A stretch of DNA of 55,029 bases, filler included, from Stramenopiles sp. TOSAG23-2 (Eukaryota): the NCBI GenBank assembly GCA_900128395.1. It is 5 parts of 5 records of this genome, joined end to end, with 100 filler letters (N's around TTAATTAATTAA, not from the genome) between each part and the next. Parts side by side here need not be neighbours in the genome. Positions count along the whole stretch, not along the records: positions 22,064 to 32,989 come from LT649977.1; 4 more parts are not named here. One strand, 5' to 3'. Of this stretch, positions 16,040-35,846 are shown piece by piece. Numbering within the stretch: the first letter of the stretch is position 1; the number at the start of each line of letters is the position of its first letter. Under the pieces are notes generated by a model. It did not search any database. It worked only from the letters and a program-made list of their open reading frames with translations, and had not been told where the DNA came from. The position numbers and the translations under genes are program-made.

Positions 16040-17482
16040 ATGTTGTTACAAAATGGATCAATATTTTTTACAATATTAATAATCACCATTACATATAATA
16101 TTATTATTATTAATAATAATCATATAATATATGCAAAAAATGAAGATTCATCATCATCATCAAATCATCAATATAAAACAACACAGAAACATGATAAATT
16201 ATATCGTGGCTTGTACCTTGGTTGGCTTGGAAAATATAATGAAGGTGATGAAGCAATGTACCACGTTGCGAGTGAATTGTTTGCAAATGTTGGTATCAAT
16301 ATGGGAATTTCTGTGACTCTTTTTCCTTTTAAACCACCGTTAACTTGTCATTTATTTCATTTAACATTAACATCATATGATTTTATTATACATGGTGGTG
16401 GTTCTATATTAGGATCACCTGAATATCAATGTATTTTAAAACAAAGTACTGAATTAGGAATTCCAACAATAGTGTTTGGCACGGGATGGGAAGCTAGTGA
16501 TTCCACTGGTGGTAAACGTCTCCTTCAATATTTTCAACAACAAAATGTTGGTTTTAATATAGAAATGAATGAAGATGTTGCAAATCGTCATATTATTGCT
16601 ATAAAATCATATCAATATGGTGGATTTCGTGGTATATATACAAAAACAATTGCTGATTTATTATATCCAAATCATGGTTTTGATATTATAGGTGATTCTG
16701 GTATTTTATCAAAACGTTTAATTAATTCATATAGTAGTACTTTAAACAATGAAATTAATATACAAGAAGAACACGAAGAAGAACAACAAAGAAGAAGAAG
16801 AAGAAATACGAAATGGAATATTACTCCATTAACAAATGATTTACCAATAATTGCAATTAATTATGGTCAAAACCATCCAGATGATCCTGCTATCTTTCAT
16901 AGTTCGACAGAGACATTGTTTACATCATTTGTTGATCTTGGTGCATCCTTAGTCAAATATGGATACAATGTTATATATTATTCGATGTCAGCAGATGATT
17001 TACAATTTGTTGGTAATTTATATACAAAAACGTTTGATGTATTAAATGCAATTAATATGCAAGACGATGTTGATTTAGATTTTAATATTAAAGATCGTGT
17101 TCATGTATTAAACTATGTACCAGATACAATAAATATATTGGAATTATTATCTGATTCATATTTTAGTATTAATTATAAATTACATGGTAATGTCTTAAGT
17201 GCTTCCGTTGGTACACCATTTATATGTGTAGCATATCATTTAAAAAGTATGGAATTTGCACGTTTTATTGATATAAGCATTGAAACGAAATATAGTATAC
17301 GTAGTGATTTCATTGACTCTGCTAATAGTTTTGAAGCTGCATTGGAAGCATTACATACTGATGGAGAAATGCAACGATATACACAATTATTAAATGAAAA
17401 AATAAGTGTGACTAATTTAAAATATAATGAAATGATAATGAATGCATTGAAAGATGTAGTGTTGAGGAGGTTGGATAAATAA
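16040..17482 (+). CDS. Polysaccharide pyruvyl transferase family protein (CsaB/WcaK-like) with N-terminal signal/anchor
   Basis: GWLGKYNEGDEAM, IIHGGGSILG, GFRG..T, GDSGIL, KLHGNVLSASVGTPFICVAYHLK follow the PS_pyruv_trans motif order (GN.GD, GGG, R, DP, RLH....GVP...Y..K). Confidence 0.8.
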   Translation: MLLQNGSIFFTILIITITYNIIIINNNHIIYAKNEDSSSSSNHQYKTTQKHDKLYRGLYLGWLGKYNEGDEAMYHVASELFANVGINMGISVTLFPFKPPLTCHLFHLTLTSYDFIIHGGGSILGSPEYQCILKQSTELGIPTIVFGTGWEASDSTGGKRLLQYFQQQNVGFNIEMNEDVANRHIIAIKSYQYGGFRGIYTKTIADLLYPNHGFDIIGDSGILSKRLINSYSSTLNNEINIQEEHEEEQQRRRRRNTKWNITPLTNDLPIIAINYGQNHPDDPAIFHSSTETLFTSFVDLGASLVKYGYNVIYYSMSADDLQFVGNLYTKTFDVLNAINMQDDVDLDFNIKDRVHVLNYVPDTINILELLSDSYFSINYKLHGNVLSASVGTPFICVAYHLKSMEFARFIDISIETKYSIRSDFIDSANSFEAALEALHTDGEMQRYTQLLNEKISVTNLKYNEMIMNALKDVVLRRLDK

Positions 17483-17934: not shown

Positions 17935-20900
17935 TCATACCAATTCCAACCCATCAAATCCATCCATGTCTGGACCACTACTACCATCATCTTCGCCATA
18001 TAAATGCGCTTTCATAAATGCATCATCCTCTTCCCCATCCTCTTCCTCCTCCACCATACGTACTAAATCATCATCATCATCATCATAAATACCTTCATCA
18101 TCAAACGTAGCAAGTGTTTGATATCCACGTTTTGTTAAACGATCAAATAATCGTTTAAAACAACCATCATCATTGATATTTCGACTATTATTACCATTAC
18201 TATTCACTAACAATTGGTCAATATCTGGTTTTACATAATATTTCAAATGTAAACTGGAACATACAACTGATACGGAGGAAAATGCCATTGCTAAACCAGC
18301 AAATTGTGGTGGCAATCCAATATGAAAAAATGGATAAAATACACCTGCTGCTAATGGTATACCAAGCATATTGTATCCTAATGCCCAAATAAAATTCAAT
18401 AAAATACGTTTGAAAACATGGCGTGATAAATGTATTGCGACAACAACGCCTTCTAAACTGCCTTTTACCAACACGACATCAGCAGCTTCAATAGCTATTT
18501 CTGAACCTTGTCCAACAGCAATCCCAATATCTGATTGTGCCAATGCAGGTGAATCATTTATACCATCACCAACCATTGCAACTATTTTACCTTCCCCTTC
18601 TTGCAATCTTTTCACTGCATTGCTTTTATTTTCTGGTAATACTTCAGCTTGGACATTTTCTAATGGAATACCAATTTTTTCCGCAACGATACTGGCAGTA
18701 CGTTTATTATCTCCAGTAATCATATGTACATCGATTCCCATTCGCCATAAAGCATTAATTGATTTCTCTGCATCTTCTTTTAACGTATCTAACAATCCAA
18801 TTACGCCTACTAAATTACCATTAACTGCAATAATTATAGCAGTACATCCTAAATTCTCACATCGTTTCATTTCATGTTCAAACTCTTCATTAATATCAAT
18901 ACCTAATGTATTCATCCATGCTCTGTTGCCTATGCATACTGTGCAACTATGTTTACCATCTGGCACGGTAACAGTTGCTTTTAAACCTAAACCTGGTTCT
19001 ATATCAATTGAAGATGGCTCGTTAATATTTATTTGTCTATCATCACGTTTTTGTTTCTCATTAGACAATTTAGTTTTCACATATTTTACTATTGCAGTTG
19101 CAAGTGGATGTTCGCTGCCTAATTCAGCAGATGCAATTAATGCTAAAAATACATTCGTTTCCTCCGTTTTATCTCTATCATGGCTACATTTAGGCAAATT
19201 AAATGGGAATAAACATGAAACTTCCACAACATTTAATTTACCTTTGGTAATTGTTCCAGTCTTATCAAAAACAACAGTAGTTATTTTATGTGCCATTTCC
19301 AATGCATGTCCTCCTTTAATTAATATACCATTCGCAGCACCGACACCGGAACCAACCATCACGGCGGTTGGTGTAGCAAGTCCTAATGCACATGGACATG
19401 CTATGACTAAAACAGCAATTGCAAATAAAAATGAAAATACAAAATTATTTGAATTTGACATTCCCGTTTGTTGCAATACCCATGATTGTGGTGCGATACC
19501 CGTGCTTAAAGCAATAAACCATCCAAAAAAAGTTAAAATAGATAATGATAAAACGACTGGTGCAAAAATTCCTGATATTTTATCAGCAATTTTTTCAATT
19601 GGTGCCTTACTAGTTTGGGCTTCTTCCACTACACGTACAATTTGTGCTAATGCAGTATCTTTCCCAACTCTAGTTATACGTACGTATATTGTACCTGCAT
19701 GATTAATAGTACTACCATATACATTCATTCCAATATCTTTTCTTACTGACATTGCTTCGCCACTCATCATCGATTCATCTACGGTTGATTTACCTTTCAC
19801 TACAATACCATCTGCTGGTATTGTTGAACCAGGTAAAACTTTTGCAATATCTTTACATTGTAACAATGTTATGTCAATCATTTTTTCTTGGCCACCTTTG
19901 ATGGTAACATTATTATTGGAAGAAGCAGCAATAATACCAATATTGCTACCATCACTAATCAATTTATTATTGGTATTACTCGATATCGTAATGGCATCAT
20001 CATCATCATCATCACCACCACCACCATTGTTATTACCATCAACAATGGTACAACCTTCAATAATTAATGCCGTTTTTGGTTGTAATTTTAATAATTTTGC
20101 CAATGCATCCGATGTTTTTCCTTTTGCATATGATTCCATCAATTTTCCCATGACAACAAATGTCAATAATAACGCAGATGATTCAAAGAAATGCTGTCCA
20201 TGAAATTCTTTATACATACATGCTAATAACACAGACATGACGGAGTAAAAATAAGAAGCAGTTGTACCTAATGATACTAAAAAATCCATTCCAAGATTAC
20301 AATGTTTTAATCCTTTCAGTGCAGCACGATGAAAGCGATAACCAATCCAAAATTGTACTGGTGTTGATAAAATGAATAATAATAGCGTTTTATATGTTAC
20401 ACGTGGAATAATATGCTCTTCCATTGCATTTTTCAATCCAACGGAAATCATTGGTATAATCATATTAATGATCATAATTGGCACGGCAAATATTAAACTA
20501 GATAAAAATAAACATTTCCAATCATTTAAATCTTGATCATTGTTTTCCTTTAATTTATTATAATCTAATGAATTACTAGTAGATAATGTAATACCAAATC
20601 CAATATTTGTTACTGTTTTCATAATATCACGTACACCTGGACCATATCCTTTTTTTACTTTAATTTTCATACGCTTTGTCATTAAATTAACAGATGCTTT
20701 GACCACACCATTCATTTTATTTAATTCTTTTTCAATTTTATTGGAACATGATGCACATGACATTCCTGTAATTTCAAAATCAAATGAGGTGCTACTACTC
20801 TTGTTATTATTACTATTACCATCGTTGTCGCCATCGTCATCATCACTCGATTCTATATATAAAAATGTACATTCAAATCCAAGATTGTTTACAATATTTA

Positions 20901-21663
20901 CAATATCATCCGTGGTAATAATTGTTGGATGATAAATGATTTCCATTTTTCCAGCTAACAAGGCAACATTTACTTGTTGGATACCATTTGTTTTTTGCAA
21001 TTCGCGAGTTATATTTGATGAACATGAAGAACATGACATGCCACGTACATCAAAATAACTATGTGGTAATTTTTTTGTATTATTAGTATTTTTGTTGTTG
21101 TTATTATTGTTTGTATTATTAGTAGGTTCTCGTACATCTTCTGGTGCAGTAATTTCAATTGTTTTATTTCTTTTATTGTTGTTGTTGTTGTCATAGTTTT
21201 GTTTTGTGTTTGTATTACTTATATATGCATCAAATCCTACACAATCAATTGCATCAATTAATTCTTTTACACTTGCTGTGCCTTTTATTATGGCATTTGA
21301 ATTTTTAAATGATACTTTTGCTGATACAACACCAGGTACTTTTGATAATGCATTTTCAACTGTTGTACCACATGATTTTTGACACATCATACCTTCAACT
21401 GTTAGTATTATTTCTTTTATTTCGTTGTTGTCGTCATCATTTTGTGAATCTGTTTTACTTATATATGCATCAAATCCTACACAATCAATTGCATCAATTA
21501 ATTCTTTTACACTTGCTGTGCCTTTTATTATGGCATTTGAATTTTTAAATGATACTTTTGCTGATACAACACCAGGTACTTTTGATAATGCATTTTCAAC
21601 TGTTGTACCACATGATTTTTGACACATCATACCTTCAACTGTTAATGTTATAATGGATGTCAT
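17935..21663 (-). CDS. Copper-transporting P1B-type ATPase (ATP7/HMA5/CCC2-like) with four HMA domains
   Basis: HMA motifs GMMCQKSC x2, GMSCSSC, GMSCASC. CPCALGLATP, DKTGT, SEHP, GDGIND, YN and MAFSS (Cu+ type). Likely start is MTSII at 21663. Confidence 0.97.
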   Translation of the reverse strand: MTSIITLTVEGMMCQKSCGTTVENALSKVPGVVSAKVSFKNSNAIIKGTASVKELIDAIDCVGFDAYISKTDSQNDDDNNEIKEIILTVEGMMCQKSCGTTVENALSKVPGVVSAKVSFKNSNAIIKGTASVKELIDAIDCVGFDAYISNTNTKQNYDNNNNNKRNKTIEITAPEDVREPTNNTNNNNNNKNTNNTKKLPHSYFDVRGMSCSSCSSNITRELQKTNGIQQVNVALLAGKMEIIYHPTIITTDDIVNIVNNLGFECTFLYIESSDDDDGDNDGNSNNNKSSSTSFDFEITGMSCASCSNKIEKELNKMNGVVKASVNLMTKRMKIKVKKGYGPGVRDIMKTVTNIGFGITLSTSNSLDYNKLKENNDQDLNDWKCLFLSSLIFAVPIMIINMIIPMISVGLKNAMEEHIIPRVTYKTLLLFILSTPVQFWIGYRFHRAALKGLKHCNLGMDFLVSLGTTASYFYSVMSVLLACMYKEFHGQHFFESSALLLTFVVMGKLMESYAKGKTSDALAKLLKLQPKTALIIEGCTIVDGNNNGGGGDDDDDDAITISSNTNNKLISDGSNIGIIAASSNNNVTIKGGQEKMIDITLLQCKDIAKVLPGSTIPADGIVVKGKSTVDESMMSGEAMSVRKDIGMNVYGSTINHAGTIYVRITRVGKDTALAQIVRVVEEAQTSKAPIEKIADKISGIFAPVVLSLSILTFFGWFIALSTGIAPQSWVLQQTGMSNSNNFVFSFLFAIAVLVIACPCALGLATPTAVMVGSGVGAANGILIKGGHALEMAHKITTVVFDKTGTITKGKLNVVEVSCLFPFNLPKCSHDRDKTEETNVFLALIASAELGSEHPLATAIVKYVKTKLSNEKQKRDDRQININEPSSIDIEPGLGLKATVTVPDGKHSCTVCIGNRAWMNTLGIDINEEFEHEMKRCENLGCTAIIIAVNGNLVGVIGLLDTLKEDAEKSINALWRMGIDVHMITGDNKRTASIVAEKIGIPLENVQAEVLPENKSNAVKRLQEGEGKIVAMVGDGINDSPALAQSDIGIAVGQGSEIAIEAADVVLVKGSLEGVVVAIHLSRHVFKRILLNFIWALGYNMLGIPLAAGVFYPFFHIGLPPQFAGLAMAFSSVSVVCSSLHLKYYVKPDIDQLLVNSNGNNSRNINDDGCFKRLFDRLTKRGYQTLATFDDEGIYDDDDDDLVRMVEEEEDGEEDDAFMKAHLYGEDDGSSGPDMDGFDGLELV
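21215..21644. repeat. 190-bp identical direct repeat (21215-21404, 21455-21644) encoding the duplicated HMA domain
   Basis: Identical nucleotide copies 240 bp apart, in frame. Confidence 0.95.
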
Positions 21664-30484: not shown

Positions 30485-31734
30485 TAATTTCTATATATTT
30501 CATGTAAAAATGTGTACCCAAAATGATTTTTTCGTTGGGAGGGGTTCTAAATGTTGACACCTACTCGTTTGTAAAAATCACGTTTTAATACTGTATTTAT
30601 ATGCTAATGTAATATAATCACTACTATCCCACTATATTTTGTCAATATATTATACTTTTTACCAGTATTTGCTAGTATTTTTAAGGACTTTGTATACCAG
30701 AAAAGTCCCGGTTAAAATAATGATTGATTTTCAATAGTGTGCCTTGTTATATTTTATTATATATAGAATATTGTAGTTGGTAGTATATAAATATATAATT
30801 AATAATTACACATTATAGTTGTACTATACTTATTACACTATTACCTGGTAAATCTGGTAAATGCTTGAATTTTTCTTGTCACAAGATGCGTATTTTGTGC
30901 TTTTCGGATAGTATTAGGTAAAATAATTTAATTGTTCAAGTTATTTGTCGTTTTCGTCATTTAAATAATATAATATTGGTGATTTTTCATATAGATAATT
31001 TTCCATTAAAATTTTACTAAAATCAGTGATGTCATTTTTGGAATTTGGATGTCGATATTTTTCAATAAAAATAACATGTACATATCATTATGGTATTTTA
31101 CCTTAATAACGCATCATCAAATTTCCCTTGATTACGCAATAAACGAACGCACGCGAACTACATGGACATAGCAGGGACTATCAACTGAAACCATTTCCGG
31201 ATTCGCGCATCATCGTTACGGTATGCACGGTCATAAATGGTGTTATTTATAAGGGTTCTATGGTGAAATAGAGTCTAGATAACCTAATTTACAACACTAT
31301 TTTGGGAAAACACGTCACGAACCAGAAATTCCTGAGAAAATCTCAACGAAAATCAACAAAAAGACTCTCCATTGGATCGATCATTTACATAAAAAATTTT
31401 AACAACAAAAACAAGATATAAAAGTTATTTTATACGTATATCATCGTTGTCGTTGTTTGCTTGTAATAGTGCATCAAAGAGCTTGTATAATTCTGTATTT
31501 TGTTTTTTTAAATTATTATTTTTATTAAATTAGTCATTGATAAAAAAATAATTAATTTTTAATTTTATACGATTTTTGTTTATATTTGAAGGATTTGCCG
31601 TTATATATATCATATATATCATATCATATCAACAATAATATTATCAATCAATCAAAATCATTTATCATATCGATATATATATATATATATATCATATCAA
31701 TAATAATATATAATCAAGCAATCAAAAATTCATC

Positions 31735-32640
31735 ATGTTTTTATCAGTTATGAATCGTTGTAAAAAAATAATAAATACAAAATCAACATTATTATCACAA
31801 CAAATGATACGCCGTAAAAATAATAATAAGAAAAAATGGTTTTCCTCATCATCTTCAAAGACAGTTGCAGAGGAGCCAGTTAAAAAGAAAGGCTATTGGA
31901 ATTCAGCAGAATTTTGGGGTGGTGCAGGTGCAATCGCTGGTTGGGGTATGACAGGCGCTGCGATATACGATGCGACGAAGTTAGGACCAGAAGTGATTTC
32001 GATGAATATGACATCGGTTATGTTAGTCTATTCTTCATTATTTGCACGTTGGGCATGGGTAGTTCAACCACGTAATATTGCATTAGCAGCATGTCACGTA
32101 TCAAATGTACTTGCACAAACGAATCAAATGCGACGTGCATTGGAACATAAAATAGCAAACGGTTTCGAAGACGAAGTGAAAGCATTTTTAATGAAAGCTG
32201 GTGGGTTTGCAGCTGGTATTGGTGCATTGATTATTGCGGGACCTACATTACAAGCTGGTTTTGTGAGTGCAAATTTAGGACCAATTTCTGCTGCAAGTGC
32301 AGCACCAGCAGGTCCATTTACTGTCCATTTCTGGGCACCAATGTCTAAATGGTTAATAAGCGGTGCATCGTTTTTAGATTTAGATCGTCCAACGGATAAG
32401 GTTAGTCTATCGCAATATACTGCATTGACATTGACAGGTTTTTTCTTTAGTCGATATGCAATGCTTGTTACACCAATTAATTATTTATTATGTAGTGTGA
32501 ATATTGCATTGTTTGGTAGTAGTGCATGGCATTTAGGTAGAAAAATTAAAGCAGATTATATTGATGAGAAACAGAAACCAACAACAGGAACAGGAACAGC
32601 GACAAAGGAAGAGGAGGAGGAGGAGAAGGAAACACATTAA
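31735..32640 (+). CDS. Mitochondrial pyruvate carrier, fused MPC1+MPC2 in one chain
   Basis: First half FWG...GWG..AAIYD..GPEVIS.NMT..YS.LF.RWAW.VQPRN.AL.ACH..N...Q is MPC1-like. Second half PAGPFTVHFWAPMSKW...D..RP..K.S..Q..AL..TG....RY....P.NY.L..VN is MPC2-like. Confidence 0.92.
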   Translation: MFLSVMNRCKKIINTKSTLLSQQMIRRKNNNKKKWFSSSSSKTVAEEPVKKKGYWNSAEFWGGAGAIAGWGMTGAAIYDATKLGPEVISMNMTSVMLVYSSLFARWAWVVQPRNIALAACHVSNVLAQTNQMRRALEHKIANGFEDEVKAFLMKAGGFAAGIGALIIAGPTLQAGFVSANLGPISAASAAPAGPFTVHFWAPMSKWLISGASFLDLDRPTDKVSLSQYTALTLTGFFFSRYAMLVTPINYLLCSVNIALFGSSAWHLGRKIKADYIDEKQKPTTGTGTATKEEEEEEKETH

Positions 32641-32953: not shown

Positions 32954-32989
<36 letters not shown>

Positions 32990-33089
32990 NNNNNNNNNNN
33001 NNNNNNNNNNNNNNNNNNNNNNNNNNNNNNNNNTTAATTAATTAANNNNNNNNNNNNNNNNNNNNNNNNNNNNNNNNNNNNNNNNNNNN
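32990..33089. other. Artificial contig linker
   Basis: N44-TTAATTAATTAA-N44. Confidence 0.99.
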
Positions 33090-33453
33090 CTCTTTTATAT
33101 CTTTCAATTAATAAATAAAGTCTTCTCGCTGGATGTGAAAGTCTCATCTCATTTATACTTCTTCTACCTACATAACCAATACTCAATGCTACATCACGTA
33201 CACGCTCAAAATCATCACATCCAAATGCTTTTCTACATTGTTGTATTAAAGAAGATCGTTTCACATTACATAATGATCTAATATCTAAATTTAGAAGTAT
33301 ATTTGTCATTATCCCGCAGGCAGACTCAAATCCAGCTGGTAAAACTAATATACCAATTTCAATAGGTTCCGCACGTTCTTCCTCTAACGCTTCAATGGTA
33401 GACTTCTTCAGTCTCTTTTTTGGTGGTGGTTGATAAGTAGTTATTGATGCCAT
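33090..33453 (-). CDS. Unknown protein, N-terminal fragment (possible NLS and F-box-like segment)
   Basis: PPPKKRLKK basic motif. LP......IMTNILLNLDIRSLCNV weakly resembles an F-box. Runs off the contig end. Confidence 0.5.
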
Positions 33454-33803: not shown

Positions 33804-35846
33804 CTACCTGTTGTTTAATAAATATGCAAAACCTACTGTCGCTGTAGCAGTTGCTGCAAATAGTAAATTATTTGAATCTGCAAATCTTCTATTAATGTTC
33901 GACCATATACCATTATCACCCCAATCCCCATCGGCATCATCTATATCATTATTACTACTACTACTACTGCTACTATTATTACCAAAAGGAGTTCTACAAT
34001 TTGGACAAGTAGTTTTACCTTGTCCTTCTTTCCAAAGATTTAAACATTTACTATGAAAAACATGTTGGCATTGTTTAATTTGAGTTACTTCAATTAAACC
34101 ATAATTATTTGTAGTATATAAATTTTCTAAACAAATGCTACATTGTCTTGTAATATCAATAACGCGAGTTCCATAAAATTTATAATACAAAGCATCATGC
34201 TTATTCTTTAAATGAACATATTGCATATGATTACTAAATTTAGGTTTATAAATTTTTGCTTGTTCATCAATTTTTTCTGGTATTTCAAAGATATTACTTC
34301 CATCGTAACTACATTTTATCAATTGGTATACACCTCGAGATGTAGCTTCTTTAATATTTTCAGATACTAAATCTGCTCCAAGTATATCAGCTAACATTGC
34401 TTTCCATAAATTATTATTTTGTAATGCAGTGCCACTACAAAATATTTTCACGCCATTGCCTTCATTACCTTCCCCAAGATATGCTTTTAATCGATCGTAA
34501 ATCTCTTTCAATCTAAATCCAATAGCTTGAAGATGAGCAATTAAGATATCTTCCGGTGTTGTTGTAGTTTTAATACCTGTTATTGTGCCAGTAGCACTAT
34601 CAACCCATCCTGGTGCTCGTTCCCCATTTGGAAATGGTAAAATTGTTAAATTATGATGAAACAAACGTTTTTCATTTCCATTTTGATTTACATATTCTTC
34701 AAGATTCTTAGAATTATTACTATCCAATTTTACTGTCTTTTGAAGCCATTCATAGATAGATCCACCATCTGTTAAAGCACCACCTAATAATGAATATGTA
34801 CGATTGATTTTATAACACCATAATCCAGAAGGTATTTCTATACCTTCGAATTGAATATCATTTACAACAATTCGCATTGCTGCACTAGTACCTATTGTCA
34901 TAGCAACTCTCGTATCATTTGTTGCTTTTGAGCCAATATTTGCTGCTGCACCATCTCCAATGCCAAGAAAAAATCTAGTAGCACCTGTATTATATATTTC
35001 AGGCCACTTGCTACAATAGTTTACATTATTTGATATCTTTAAAACATTGTTATTATTATTTGTTCCATTATTATTATTATGATGATGATGGTTACTAGAT
35101 ATTTCCCAATATGAATCACCAATTTGACTAAAATCATTTGTGCTCATACCAATCAAATTTAATAATCCTTCATGCCATTCCAATGTTGACGACGGTGAAG
35201 AATGTGATGATGCTGTCATTCGATTGAAAAGTCCAGTCCAAGATGCCTCTGAAATACCAACTTTTACGTCACAATTTCCTGTCCATTTAGATAAAATATA
35301 AGATGTTAAAGTTGTCCATCGTTCTACCTTTTGAAATAATTCAGGTTCTTCATTTTGTACACATAATAACTGGGATGCTGCATATGATGCATGTATAGTC
35401 GTTCCAGTTTGTTGATGCAAAATCCATGAATTAATTTCATTTTGTCTGTAATGCGTTTTGATTAATTCTTTTAACCTATTTGTATAGGTTGCTTTCTTTG
35501 GATGATCATTTGCATATGTATATACAGGTGTAATGGCTTGAAGACCTTTTGAATGTGTTAATTCACACCCAACTAAAGACATTGCAAAACAATCAAAACC
35601 CACTGCTTTAATATTAAATTGATTTGCACCATCTTTTTCGCGTAGATATTCAATAGATTGATGTATACACAAATCAACACATTTAACAATTTCATCTGCA
35701 TTAAATGTACCAATTTCCGATTTCGATACAGGCTTTTGCACTATATGTATCGCTTCGTTATTATTATCATCATTATTTTTCTCAATATACATGGCACAAC
35801 GACAACTAGAACTACCAATATCAATGGTAAAAATATATTCCTCCAT
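33804..35846 (-). CDS. FGGY-family carbohydrate kinase (gluconokinase-like) fused to a RING-H2 finger and C-terminal hydrophobic tail
   Basis: TIDIGSSSCR, SEASWTGLFN, GIGDGAAANIGS, TIGTSAAMR, GGALTDGG, LPFPNGERAPGW, EATSRG, then CSIC...CQHVFHSKC...W...CPNCR, then LLFAATATATVGFAYLL. Likely start is MEEYIF at 35846. Confidence 0.9.
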   Translation of the reverse strand: MEEYIFTIDIGSSSCRCAMYIEKNNDDNNNEAIHIVQKPVSKSEIGTFNADEIVKCVDLCIHQSIEYLREKDGANQFNIKAVGFDCFAMSLVGCELTHSKGLQAITPVYTYANDHPKKATYTNRLKELIKTHYRQNEINSWILHQQTGTTIHASYAASQLLCVQNEEPELFQKVERWTTLTSYILSKWTGNCDVKVGISEASWTGLFNRMTASSHSSPSSTLEWHEGLLNLIGMSTNDFSQIGDSYWEISSNHHHHNNNNGTNNNNNVLKISNNVNYCSKWPEIYNTGATRFFLGIGDGAAANIGSKATNDTRVAMTIGTSAAMRIVVNDIQFEGIEIPSGLWCYKINRTYSLLGGALTDGGSIYEWLQKTVKLDSNNSKNLEEYVNQNGNEKRLFHHNLTILPFPNGERAPGWVDSATGTITGIKTTTTPEDILIAHLQAIGFRLKEIYDRLKAYLGEGNEGNGVKIFCSGTALQNNNLWKAMLADILGADLVSENIKEATSRGVYQLIKCSYDGSNIFEIPEKIDEQAKIYKPKFSNHMQYVHLKNKHDALYYKFYGTRVIDITRQCSICLENLYTTNNYGLIEVTQIKQCQHVFHSKCLNLWKEGQGKTTCPNCRTPFGNNSSSSSSSNNDIDDADGDWGDNGIWSNINRRFADSNNLLFAATATATVGFAYLLNNR

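Follow-up and report, generated by a model that had tools for sequence, protein, structure and literature searches.

Within the window (the whole stretch of 55,029 nucleotides, filler included, from the assembly GCA_900128395.1 of Stramenopiles sp. TOSAG23-2), a single open reading frame (ORF) on the plus strand, 31735..32640, begins with ATG and encodes 301 amino acids plus a stop, with zero internal stops in the standard code. The Pfam profile for mitochondrial pyruvate carriers (MPC, PF03650) matches the protein with an E-value of 2.4e-47 and 160 bits (curated cut-off 27), and does so in two stretches, as anticipated by the original prediction, which had read the locus as an MPC1-like unit, a hydrophobic linker and an MPC2-like unit in one uninterrupted frame. 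A further Pfam match, STIV_turret_2nd (E 0.044), was below threshold and was discarded. The features of the gene are listed in Table 1. It is highly probable that this is an intronless nuclear gene for a single-chain MPC, built from an N-terminal extension, an MPC1-type bundle, a membrane helix, an MPC2-type bundle and an acidic tail, and working like the human heterodimer.

Table 1. Features of the single-chain MPC gene and their positions in the window (aa, amino acids of the encoded protein).
Feature	Position	Strand	Evidence
Whole intronless coding sequence, single-chain MPC (301 aa + stop)	31735..32640	+	ORF; Pfam MPC; 99%-identical metagenome proteins
Presequence-like N-terminal extension, aa 1-42	31735..31860	+	composition; family statistics; helix 2-26 at low confidence
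MPC1-type three-helix bundle, aa 52-141 (model helices 58-83, 90-109, 115-141)	31888..32157	+	bit scores; model; tree
His121 codon (cac), counterpart of human MPC1L His86	32095..32097	+	alignment; invariant in 109 sequences
Linker helix, aa 145-178, predicted membrane-crossing	32167..32268	+	hydropathy maximum; model; SWEET alignment; relatives' spacers
Short helix, aa 183-189, at the position of the MPC2 linker helix	32281..32301	+	model; MPC2 homology starts at MPC2 residue 34 = aa 190
MPC2-type three-helix bundle, aa 190-276 (model helices 197-214, 225-244, 250-276)	32302..32562	+	bit scores; model; tree
Lys205 codon (aaa), counterpart of human MPC2 Lys49	32347..32349	+	ungapped alignment; invariant in 109 sequences
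Variable C-terminal tail, aa 277-301, Thr/Gly- then Glu-rich	32563..32637	+	sequence; block model confidence 43-60

The two halves of the protein resemble two different MPC subunits. Amino acids 52-144 match human MPC1/MPC1L and amino acids 190-269 match human MPC2; the MPC1-like unit predicted at 31890-32135 (amino acids 52-134) falls within the first of these stretches and the MPC2-like unit predicted at 32300-32550 (amino acids 189-272) corresponds to the second. When each half was searched separately against the sequences in PDB, the preferences were opposite: amino acids 51-145 score 58.3-67.7 bits with MPC1/MPC1L and 13.5-16.5 bits with MPC2, whereas amino acids 185-278 score 60.8-63.1 bits with MPC2 and 22-28.1 bits with MPC1/MPC1L. 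In structural alignments, the halves have 38-43% identity to MPC1-type chains and 31-34% identity to MPC2 chains.

In public protein collections, 713 proteins of 165-527 amino acids match the window protein at E <= 0.001, and 91 clusters at 50% identity do so with E <= 1e-30. Profiles of the N half, the C half and the linker were built from a 109-sequence alignment and used to sort 409 fetched proteins: both halves, N-type followed by C-type, are present in 160 of them, and the two-unit architecture is thus far beyond chance. Proteins of 301-304 amino acids that are 99% identical to the window protein occur in public metagenome gene sets, and the members of its cluster at 90% identity are gene calls from marine metagenomes and Tara, 299-304 amino acids long. 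The closest named relative is in a cluster with a protein of the stramenopile MAST-4 (79% identity), which gives a rough placement of the organism from this one protein; named fused relatives with 59-79% identity include those from Thalassiosira, Cyclotella, Cylindrotheca, Pelagophyceae CCMP2097, MAST-4 and Pycnococcus provasolii, and a dinoflagellate has a more distant one. A cluster of ~289 amino acids has Haptophyta as its commonest phylum, which we regard as a lead only. The fused MPC of the green alga Pycnococcus provasolii (P0102, 71% identity) is encoded on a contig of 946,859 bases, indicating that the fusion is not confined to stramenopiles and alveolates. A further fused MPC of 71% identity (P0017) carries the name of the choanoflagellate Bicosta minor in EukProt; as the other named relatives at such identity are algae or stramenopiles, contamination of this data set is likely. 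Matches shorter than 165 amino acids (210 at E <= 0.001) were not taken as evidence of separate MPC1 or MPC2 genes: by their scores, most of the 120 listed look like parts of fused genes that lie on short contigs.

The 81 domain segments in a phylogenetic tree comprise 33 N halves and as many C halves, together with 15 single-domain proteins. The latter scored less than 115 bits; 24 higher-scoring single-domain proteins were left out as probable fragments. The tree has two sides, each with a Shimodaira-Hasegawa-like approximate likelihood ratio test (SH-aLRT) value of 100: one holds all 33 N halves together with 3 single-domain proteins, the other all 33 C halves together with 12 single-domain proteins. 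Single-domain proteins were typed by PDB search: P0409 is MPC1-type (73-80 bits versus 30-33 bits for MPC2), P0394 is also MPC1-type and P0397 is MPC2-type (98-105 versus 19-28 bits). Bit scores, tree and PDB labels thus separate the N half from the C half, and an origin of both halves from the same paralog, which would have spoken against the proposed covalent MPC1-linker-MPC2 chain, is not what we find: each half comes from a different paralog. P0394 and P0396 nest within the clade of fused N halves and may be fragments too. Four two-domain MPCs (P0333, P0337, P0338 and P0344) have spacers of 24, 127, 71 and 51 residues, respectively, with no match to the linker profile, and their C halves group with single-domain MPC2-type proteins outside the main fused clade; these four may be independent fusions or merged models of neighbouring genes.

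Between the halves, the linker named in the original prediction, AGGFAAGIGALIIAGPTL, corresponds to amino acids 155-172 and coincides with the Kyte-Doolittle hydropathy maximum of the whole protein (1.67 in a 19-residue window centred near residue 160). An AlphaFold2 model based on the 109-row family alignment, with a mean predicted local distance difference test (pLDDT) score of 81.1 and a predicted template modelling score of 0.70, has seven long helices and one short one: 58-83, 90-109, 115-141, 145-178, 183-189, 197-214, 225-244 and 250-276. The linker forms a single helix of 34 residues in this model (145-178, block pLDDT 86-97) and is predicted to span the membrane, placing the second bundle parallel to the first. 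Both the hydropathy maximum and the modelled helix are at odds with a linker that stays outside the membrane. The spacer is a common trait of the fused relatives: 155 of the 160 have a hydrophobic 19-residue window with a Kyte-Doolittle value of at least 1.0, 148 match the linker profile, and in 154 the halves are 38-48 residues apart.

In Foldseek searches, each half of the model finds human MPC chains, and SWEETs and KDEL receptors are matched by the model as a whole. In VIA-align, the best values are those for OsSWEET2b (5cth_A; Z 17.9, root mean square deviation (rmsd) 3.1 A, 200 of 212 residues), AtSWEET13 (5xpd; Z 17.9, rmsd 3.2 A, 201 residues) and 5ctg_B (Z 17.8, rmsd 3.4 A, 207 residues), and these alignments span residues 51-280 of the model. 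Cystinosin reaches Z 12.1-13.8, the KDEL receptor Z 9.4-9.8, and human MPC chains, which cover one half each, Z 6.2-8.2 (rmsd 1.6-3.8 A over 81-115 residues); with a caution level for helical bundles of about Z 13, we regard this level as exceeded for SWEETs only. Because of the Z values with SWEETs, the predicted architecture is that of SWEET and PQ-loop proteins, three helices plus one plus three. According to the available text of PMC12280002, MPC and SemiSWEET are single-bundle dimers, and SWEET and PQ-loop proteins have two bundles with a connecting transmembrane helix. The parallel drawn in the original prediction, between a fused MPC and the step from SemiSWEET to SWEET in which a dimer of three-helix units becomes one chain, thus agrees with the predicted model, including its single inversion helix. 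The resemblance is one of architecture: by sequence the single-chain MPC is not a SWEET. Identity in the structural alignments is 11-13%, the Pfam SWEET profile MtN3_slv gives E 0.42 and 11.1 bits (cut-off 23.7) with no passing stretch, and substrate, membrane and coupling differ. Unlike in SWEETs, the fused MPC did not arise by duplication of one identical unit: its halves descend from two paralogs that had already diverged. The match of MPC2 chains to the model starts at residue 163-164, so the C-terminal part of the linker sits at the sequence position of the MPC2 amphipathic helix.

Could the fusion be an artefact, with adjacent MPC1 and MPC2 genes merged by the assembly or by intergenic read-through? 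The gene lies between simple AT repeats, a run of N begins ~350 bases past its stop codon, and over-long public gene models such as P0244 (493 amino acids) are found in the same 90% cluster. However, the frame is open across the junction, and the spacer is the conserved hydrophobic helix described above, with its narrow spacing kept in relatives from many independent assemblies and transcriptomes; some of the relatives are transcriptome ORFs marked complete in MMETSP. The same architecture is described in independent papers (PMC5124317; bioRxiv 10.1101/2025.01.06.631440, as far as their accessible text goes). RNA-type public runs from 10 studies contain the gene stretch, and the contigs of four runs (X4, X5, X6 and X13) were aligned. 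Single contigs from the polyA libraries X6 (31839-32457, 619 bases) and X5 (32022-32552) and from the oligo-dT library X13 (32087-32566), belonging to three studies, extend from the MPC1 half over the linker into the MPC2 half, free of joints and gaps and with 0-3 differing letters. Two separate transcript products, which would have contradicted the fusion, are therefore not what the RNA data indicate. The merged-gene explanation is effectively refuted, and we give it next to no chance.

Run X4 yielded short, partly fitting contigs at repeats only and is uninformative on the gene. The window and the RNA contigs of different studies differ at four single letters (31923 T>C, 32238 G>A, 32260 T>A and 32430 A>C), for which variation between marine strains is the likeliest cause. 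The 493-residue P0244 is a EukProt model that shares its 90% cluster with proteins of 301-304 amino acids and is probably over-extended or merged.

Fused MPCs are not new, and the window gene is a further case of an architecture already in print, a caveat that had been raised from the start; its novelty is accordingly low. A single fused MPC was noted in the 2016 genome paper of the diatom Cyclotella cryptica (g13004.t1; PMC5124317), and a 2025 preprint has fused MPCs in Perkinsus, Aureococcus and Symbiodinium (bioRxiv 10.1101/2025.01.06.631440). These proteins and the window protein share the order of an MPC1-type followed by an MPC2-type unit in one polypeptide. They differ in that the window copy is from an AT-rich, apparently uncultured marine protist and has a presequence-like region rich in Lys/Asn rather than in Arg. 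The preprint puts whole fused sequences in the MPC1 cluster, whereas the split halves join their own paralogs here. Neither a membrane helix in the linker, nor a fold like that of SWEETs, nor a presequence is mentioned in the accessible text of these two sources. We found neither the SWEET-like seven-helix reading nor the common presequence-like extension in print, in a search whose coverage stopped short of subscription journals and bioRxiv supplements, and no reports of fused MPCs beyond the two, again with subscription journals outside the coverage. A 2023 review on the MPC (PMC10909473) uses 'fused' for a bioluminescence resonance energy transfer assay only and does not contain the words 'fusion', 'algae' or 'diatom'; 'fused', 'fusion', 'tandem' and 'duplicat' are absent from PMC7761412, and the MPC appears only in the reference lists of PMC6198282, PMC5715807 and PMC7350735 and only in the abbreviation list of PMC12924338.

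Relative to the human and yeast MPC1-MPC2 heterodimers (PDB 9giv, 8yw6, 9mnw and 9o9s, among others), the window carrier is one chain rather than two, with each half homologous to one of the three-helix bundles. In the human MPC1L/MPC2 carrier, K49 of MPC2 and H86 of MPC1L in the central pocket are essential for pyruvate binding and proton coupling, according to the available text of PMC12007569. Residues were mapped from pairwise alignments with the human chains, the MPC2 alignment being ungapped (MPC2 position = query position minus 156). MPC1L Y64, F68, F71 and L82 correspond to Y99, F103, W106 and L117, and the essential, proton-coupling H86 to H121; the essential, pyruvate-binding K49 of MPC2 corresponds to K205, and T78, W82, Y85, L96 and N100 to T234, F238, Y241, L252 and N256. 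All 11 positions are invariant in the 109-row family alignment with the exception of N256, which is at least 90% conserved. Judged from these alignments, the active site of the single-chain MPC appears intact, and the same proton-coupled rocker switch is expected. N33 and R39 of the helix-turn-helix network of MPC2 are replaced by A189 and F195 (ungapped alignment).

The window carrier thus very probably shares its mode of action with the human MPC1/MPC2 heterodimer. A central site between the bundles, formed by Lys205 of the MPC2-type half and His121 of the MPC1-type half, would bind pyruvate and a proton, and a rocker-switch motion of the bundles would open this site to one side of the inner membrane or the other. 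The hydrophobic helix of ~34 residues would cross the membrane once and thereby keep the second bundle parallel to the first, and the covalent link would fix both the 1:1 stoichiometry and the heterotypic pairing. A mitochondrial inner-membrane location, pyruvate transport, the seven-helix topology and cleavage of a presequence are all parts of this picture that we infer.

Import of pyruvate may not be the main role of such a carrier: the chief task of the fused MPC could be pyruvate export, or the transport of a different small monocarboxylate. In stramenopiles the lower half of glycolysis can be mitochondrial and yield pyruvate within the organelle, and, given mitochondrial glycolysis, pyruvate export has been speculated for diatoms (PMC5124317, accessible text). 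A proton-coupled rocker-switch carrier is in principle reversible (PMC12007569, accessible text), and the inhibitor-stacking W82 of MPC2 is a Phe (F238) in the window protein. On the other side, the essential Lys and His are kept, and of the 10 other residues mapped in the site or in contact with inhibitors, 9 are identical or replaced conservatively; because the essential and mapped site residues are kept across the family, the substrate is most likely still pyruvate. The direction of transport is set by gradients and not by the protein, and a role in export would therefore refine the reading as a pyruvate carrier instead of replacing it. We consider a main role other than pyruvate import improbable.

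Several points count against the reading of the gene as a conserved single-chain pyruvate carrier with seven helices. The first 87 bases of the ORF (31735-31821, codons 1-29) lie outside the aligned RNA contigs, and contigs of RNA libraries may include contaminating DNA. Twenty-five of the 160 fused relatives are near-identical cluster members, so that all family counts overstate independence. The tree comes from a quick maximum-likelihood search, with many inner forks unresolved. The seven-helix topology is that of a predicted model and not of a determined structure, and the best linker window is free of charged residues in only 66 of the 160 fused relatives. The change from Trp to Phe at F238 is the only clear change in the pocket. 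Experiments on any fused MPC were not found in the literature searched.

The N-terminal extension is described correctly by the original prediction as basic, Ser-rich and free of acidic residues over its first ~42 amino acids: these contain 11 Lys/Arg, 8 Ser and no Asp/Glu, the first acidic residue being E46. The extension ends in ...KKKWFSSSSSK. Since the homology to MPC1L starts at residue 21 of MPC1L, it is ~29 residues longer than the human N-terminus; the separate MPC subunits of yeast have no such presequence-like extension. For family statistics, 153 of the 160 fused proteins were used (those with a Met start, a complete first bundle and at least 15 residues ahead of it). Counted up to the position aligned with MPC1L residue 21, the median extension is 49 residues long; its net charge is positive in 150 of the 153, and the first 20 residues are free of Asp/Glu in 131 and contain at least three Lys/Arg in 127. 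The Arg content is 14.3% in the first 25 residues and 3.0% in the remainder of the protein. The motif R-x-[FYLWIM]-[SAT], which we take to be the R-3 processing-site pattern, is present in 95 of the 153 relatives, at a median position of 23; 200 shuffles gave a mean of 43.4 and a maximum of 59. The family consensus of the 109-row alignment contains ...RRxxS... in the extension. From its composition and the family motif, a reading of the extension as a presequence is plausible.

One feature of the window protein speaks against this reading: the strict Arg motif is absent, and only a Lys version, K-W-F|S, is aligned with the family motif; such a Lys version is to be expected as the genome is AT-rich. 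The background given in the original prediction, that the MPC proteins of yeast and animals are without cleavable presequences, is borne out for yeast Mpc2/Mpc3, which lack a cleavable presequence and are imported through Tom70, the small TIMs and the TIM22 carrier pathway (PMC6945462, in the sections available); the wider statement needs a qualifier. As the yeast proteins take the TIM22 route and the fused family has a presequence-like extension, a change of import route is plausible. We tentatively propose, as a possibility somewhat short of even, that the extension is a cleaved matrix-targeting signal and that this MPC has moved from the TIM22 to the TIM23 route, with its N-terminus on the matrix side.

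Alternatively, the extension may stay uncleaved, either as a basic surface helix that replaces the MPC1 amphipathic helix (which has no clear counterpart in the fused protein) or as a dispensable part, with entry still via the TIM22 carrier route. The import of the yeast proteins would fit this, and human MPC subunits keep long, basic, amphipathic N-terminal helices in the mature protein (PMC12007569, accessible text). AlphaFold2 also places a helix at residues 2-26, though with a pLDDT of just 52-61, and the window protein lacks the strict Arg motif. Against an uncleaved extension are its length, both in the window protein and in the family median, the strong enrichment of Arg in the first 25 residues and the R-3-type motif in far more relatives than in any shuffle. 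Furthermore, the composition of the extension is conserved and its sequence poorly so, and the spacer between the motif and the first bundle is variable and often acidic; such a pattern is typical of a cleaved presequence and not of a functional amphipathic helix. An uncleaved extension is, in our judgement, rather unlikely.

The import route bears on the orientation of the carrier, which is disputed for the MPC: according to the accessible text of the two sources, N-termini are in the matrix (PMC6945462) or in the intermembrane space (PMC12007569). Because a cleaved matrix signal would directly precede the first helix, the N-terminus of the fused carrier would most simply be in the matrix, though it may be re-exported after import. 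The distribution of charges gives a divided answer: over the seven-helix model, net charge is more positive on the N-terminal side in 90 of 109 rows, yet Lys plus Arg are higher on the opposite side in 109 of 109.

The surroundings of the gene are AT-rich, with a GC content of 0.26-0.39 per 2-kb step across the window. Long, mostly uninterrupted ORFs of the window carry domains of a PRP4-type WD40 splicing factor, a DENN protein, a heavy-metal P-type ATPase, a ceramidase and an FGGY kinase with a RING finger; such long, mostly unbroken ORFs with ordinary eukaryotic domains point to a compact nuclear protist genome. Simple AT-rich and (AT)n repeats lie on both sides of the MPC gene (31590-31730 and 32955-32990), and the run of N that starts at 32991, ~350 bases past the MPC stop codon, was called an assembly gap. 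The translation of a minus-strand ORF at 33034-33453 contains a run of X. The minus-strand ORF at 33804-35846 encodes 680 amino acids with the N and C domains of FGGY carbohydrate kinases and a C-terminal RING finger, an unusual pairing. Ordinary annotations are an ORF resembling polysaccharide pyruvyl transferase (16040-17482, plus strand) and a heavy-metal P-type ATPase in which the HMA domain matches four stretches (17935-21663, minus strand).

The fused carrier is real, conserved and widespread among marine protists, occurring in diatoms, pelagophytes, MAST-4, a dinoflagellate and a prasinophyte green alga. In these organisms the MPC1:MPC2 heterodimer has become fixed in a single gene during evolution, in agreement with the heterodimer being the functional unit. 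Our additions to what is in print are modest: a predicted SWEET-like fold of seven helices and a presequence-like extension across the fused family. A natural single chain sidesteps the co-expression and stoichiometry problems of MPC biochemistry. If the extension is indeed a cleaved signal, the family would provide an independent, natural way of testing which way the MPC faces in the membrane, a matter in dispute, and structural and transport studies could use the natural single chain as a construct that is already made. A cleaved signal would also point to the surface amphipathic helix of MPC2 as the source of the linker helix, and to a second, independent transition of the SemiSWEET-to-SWEET type, this time from two diverged paralogs.

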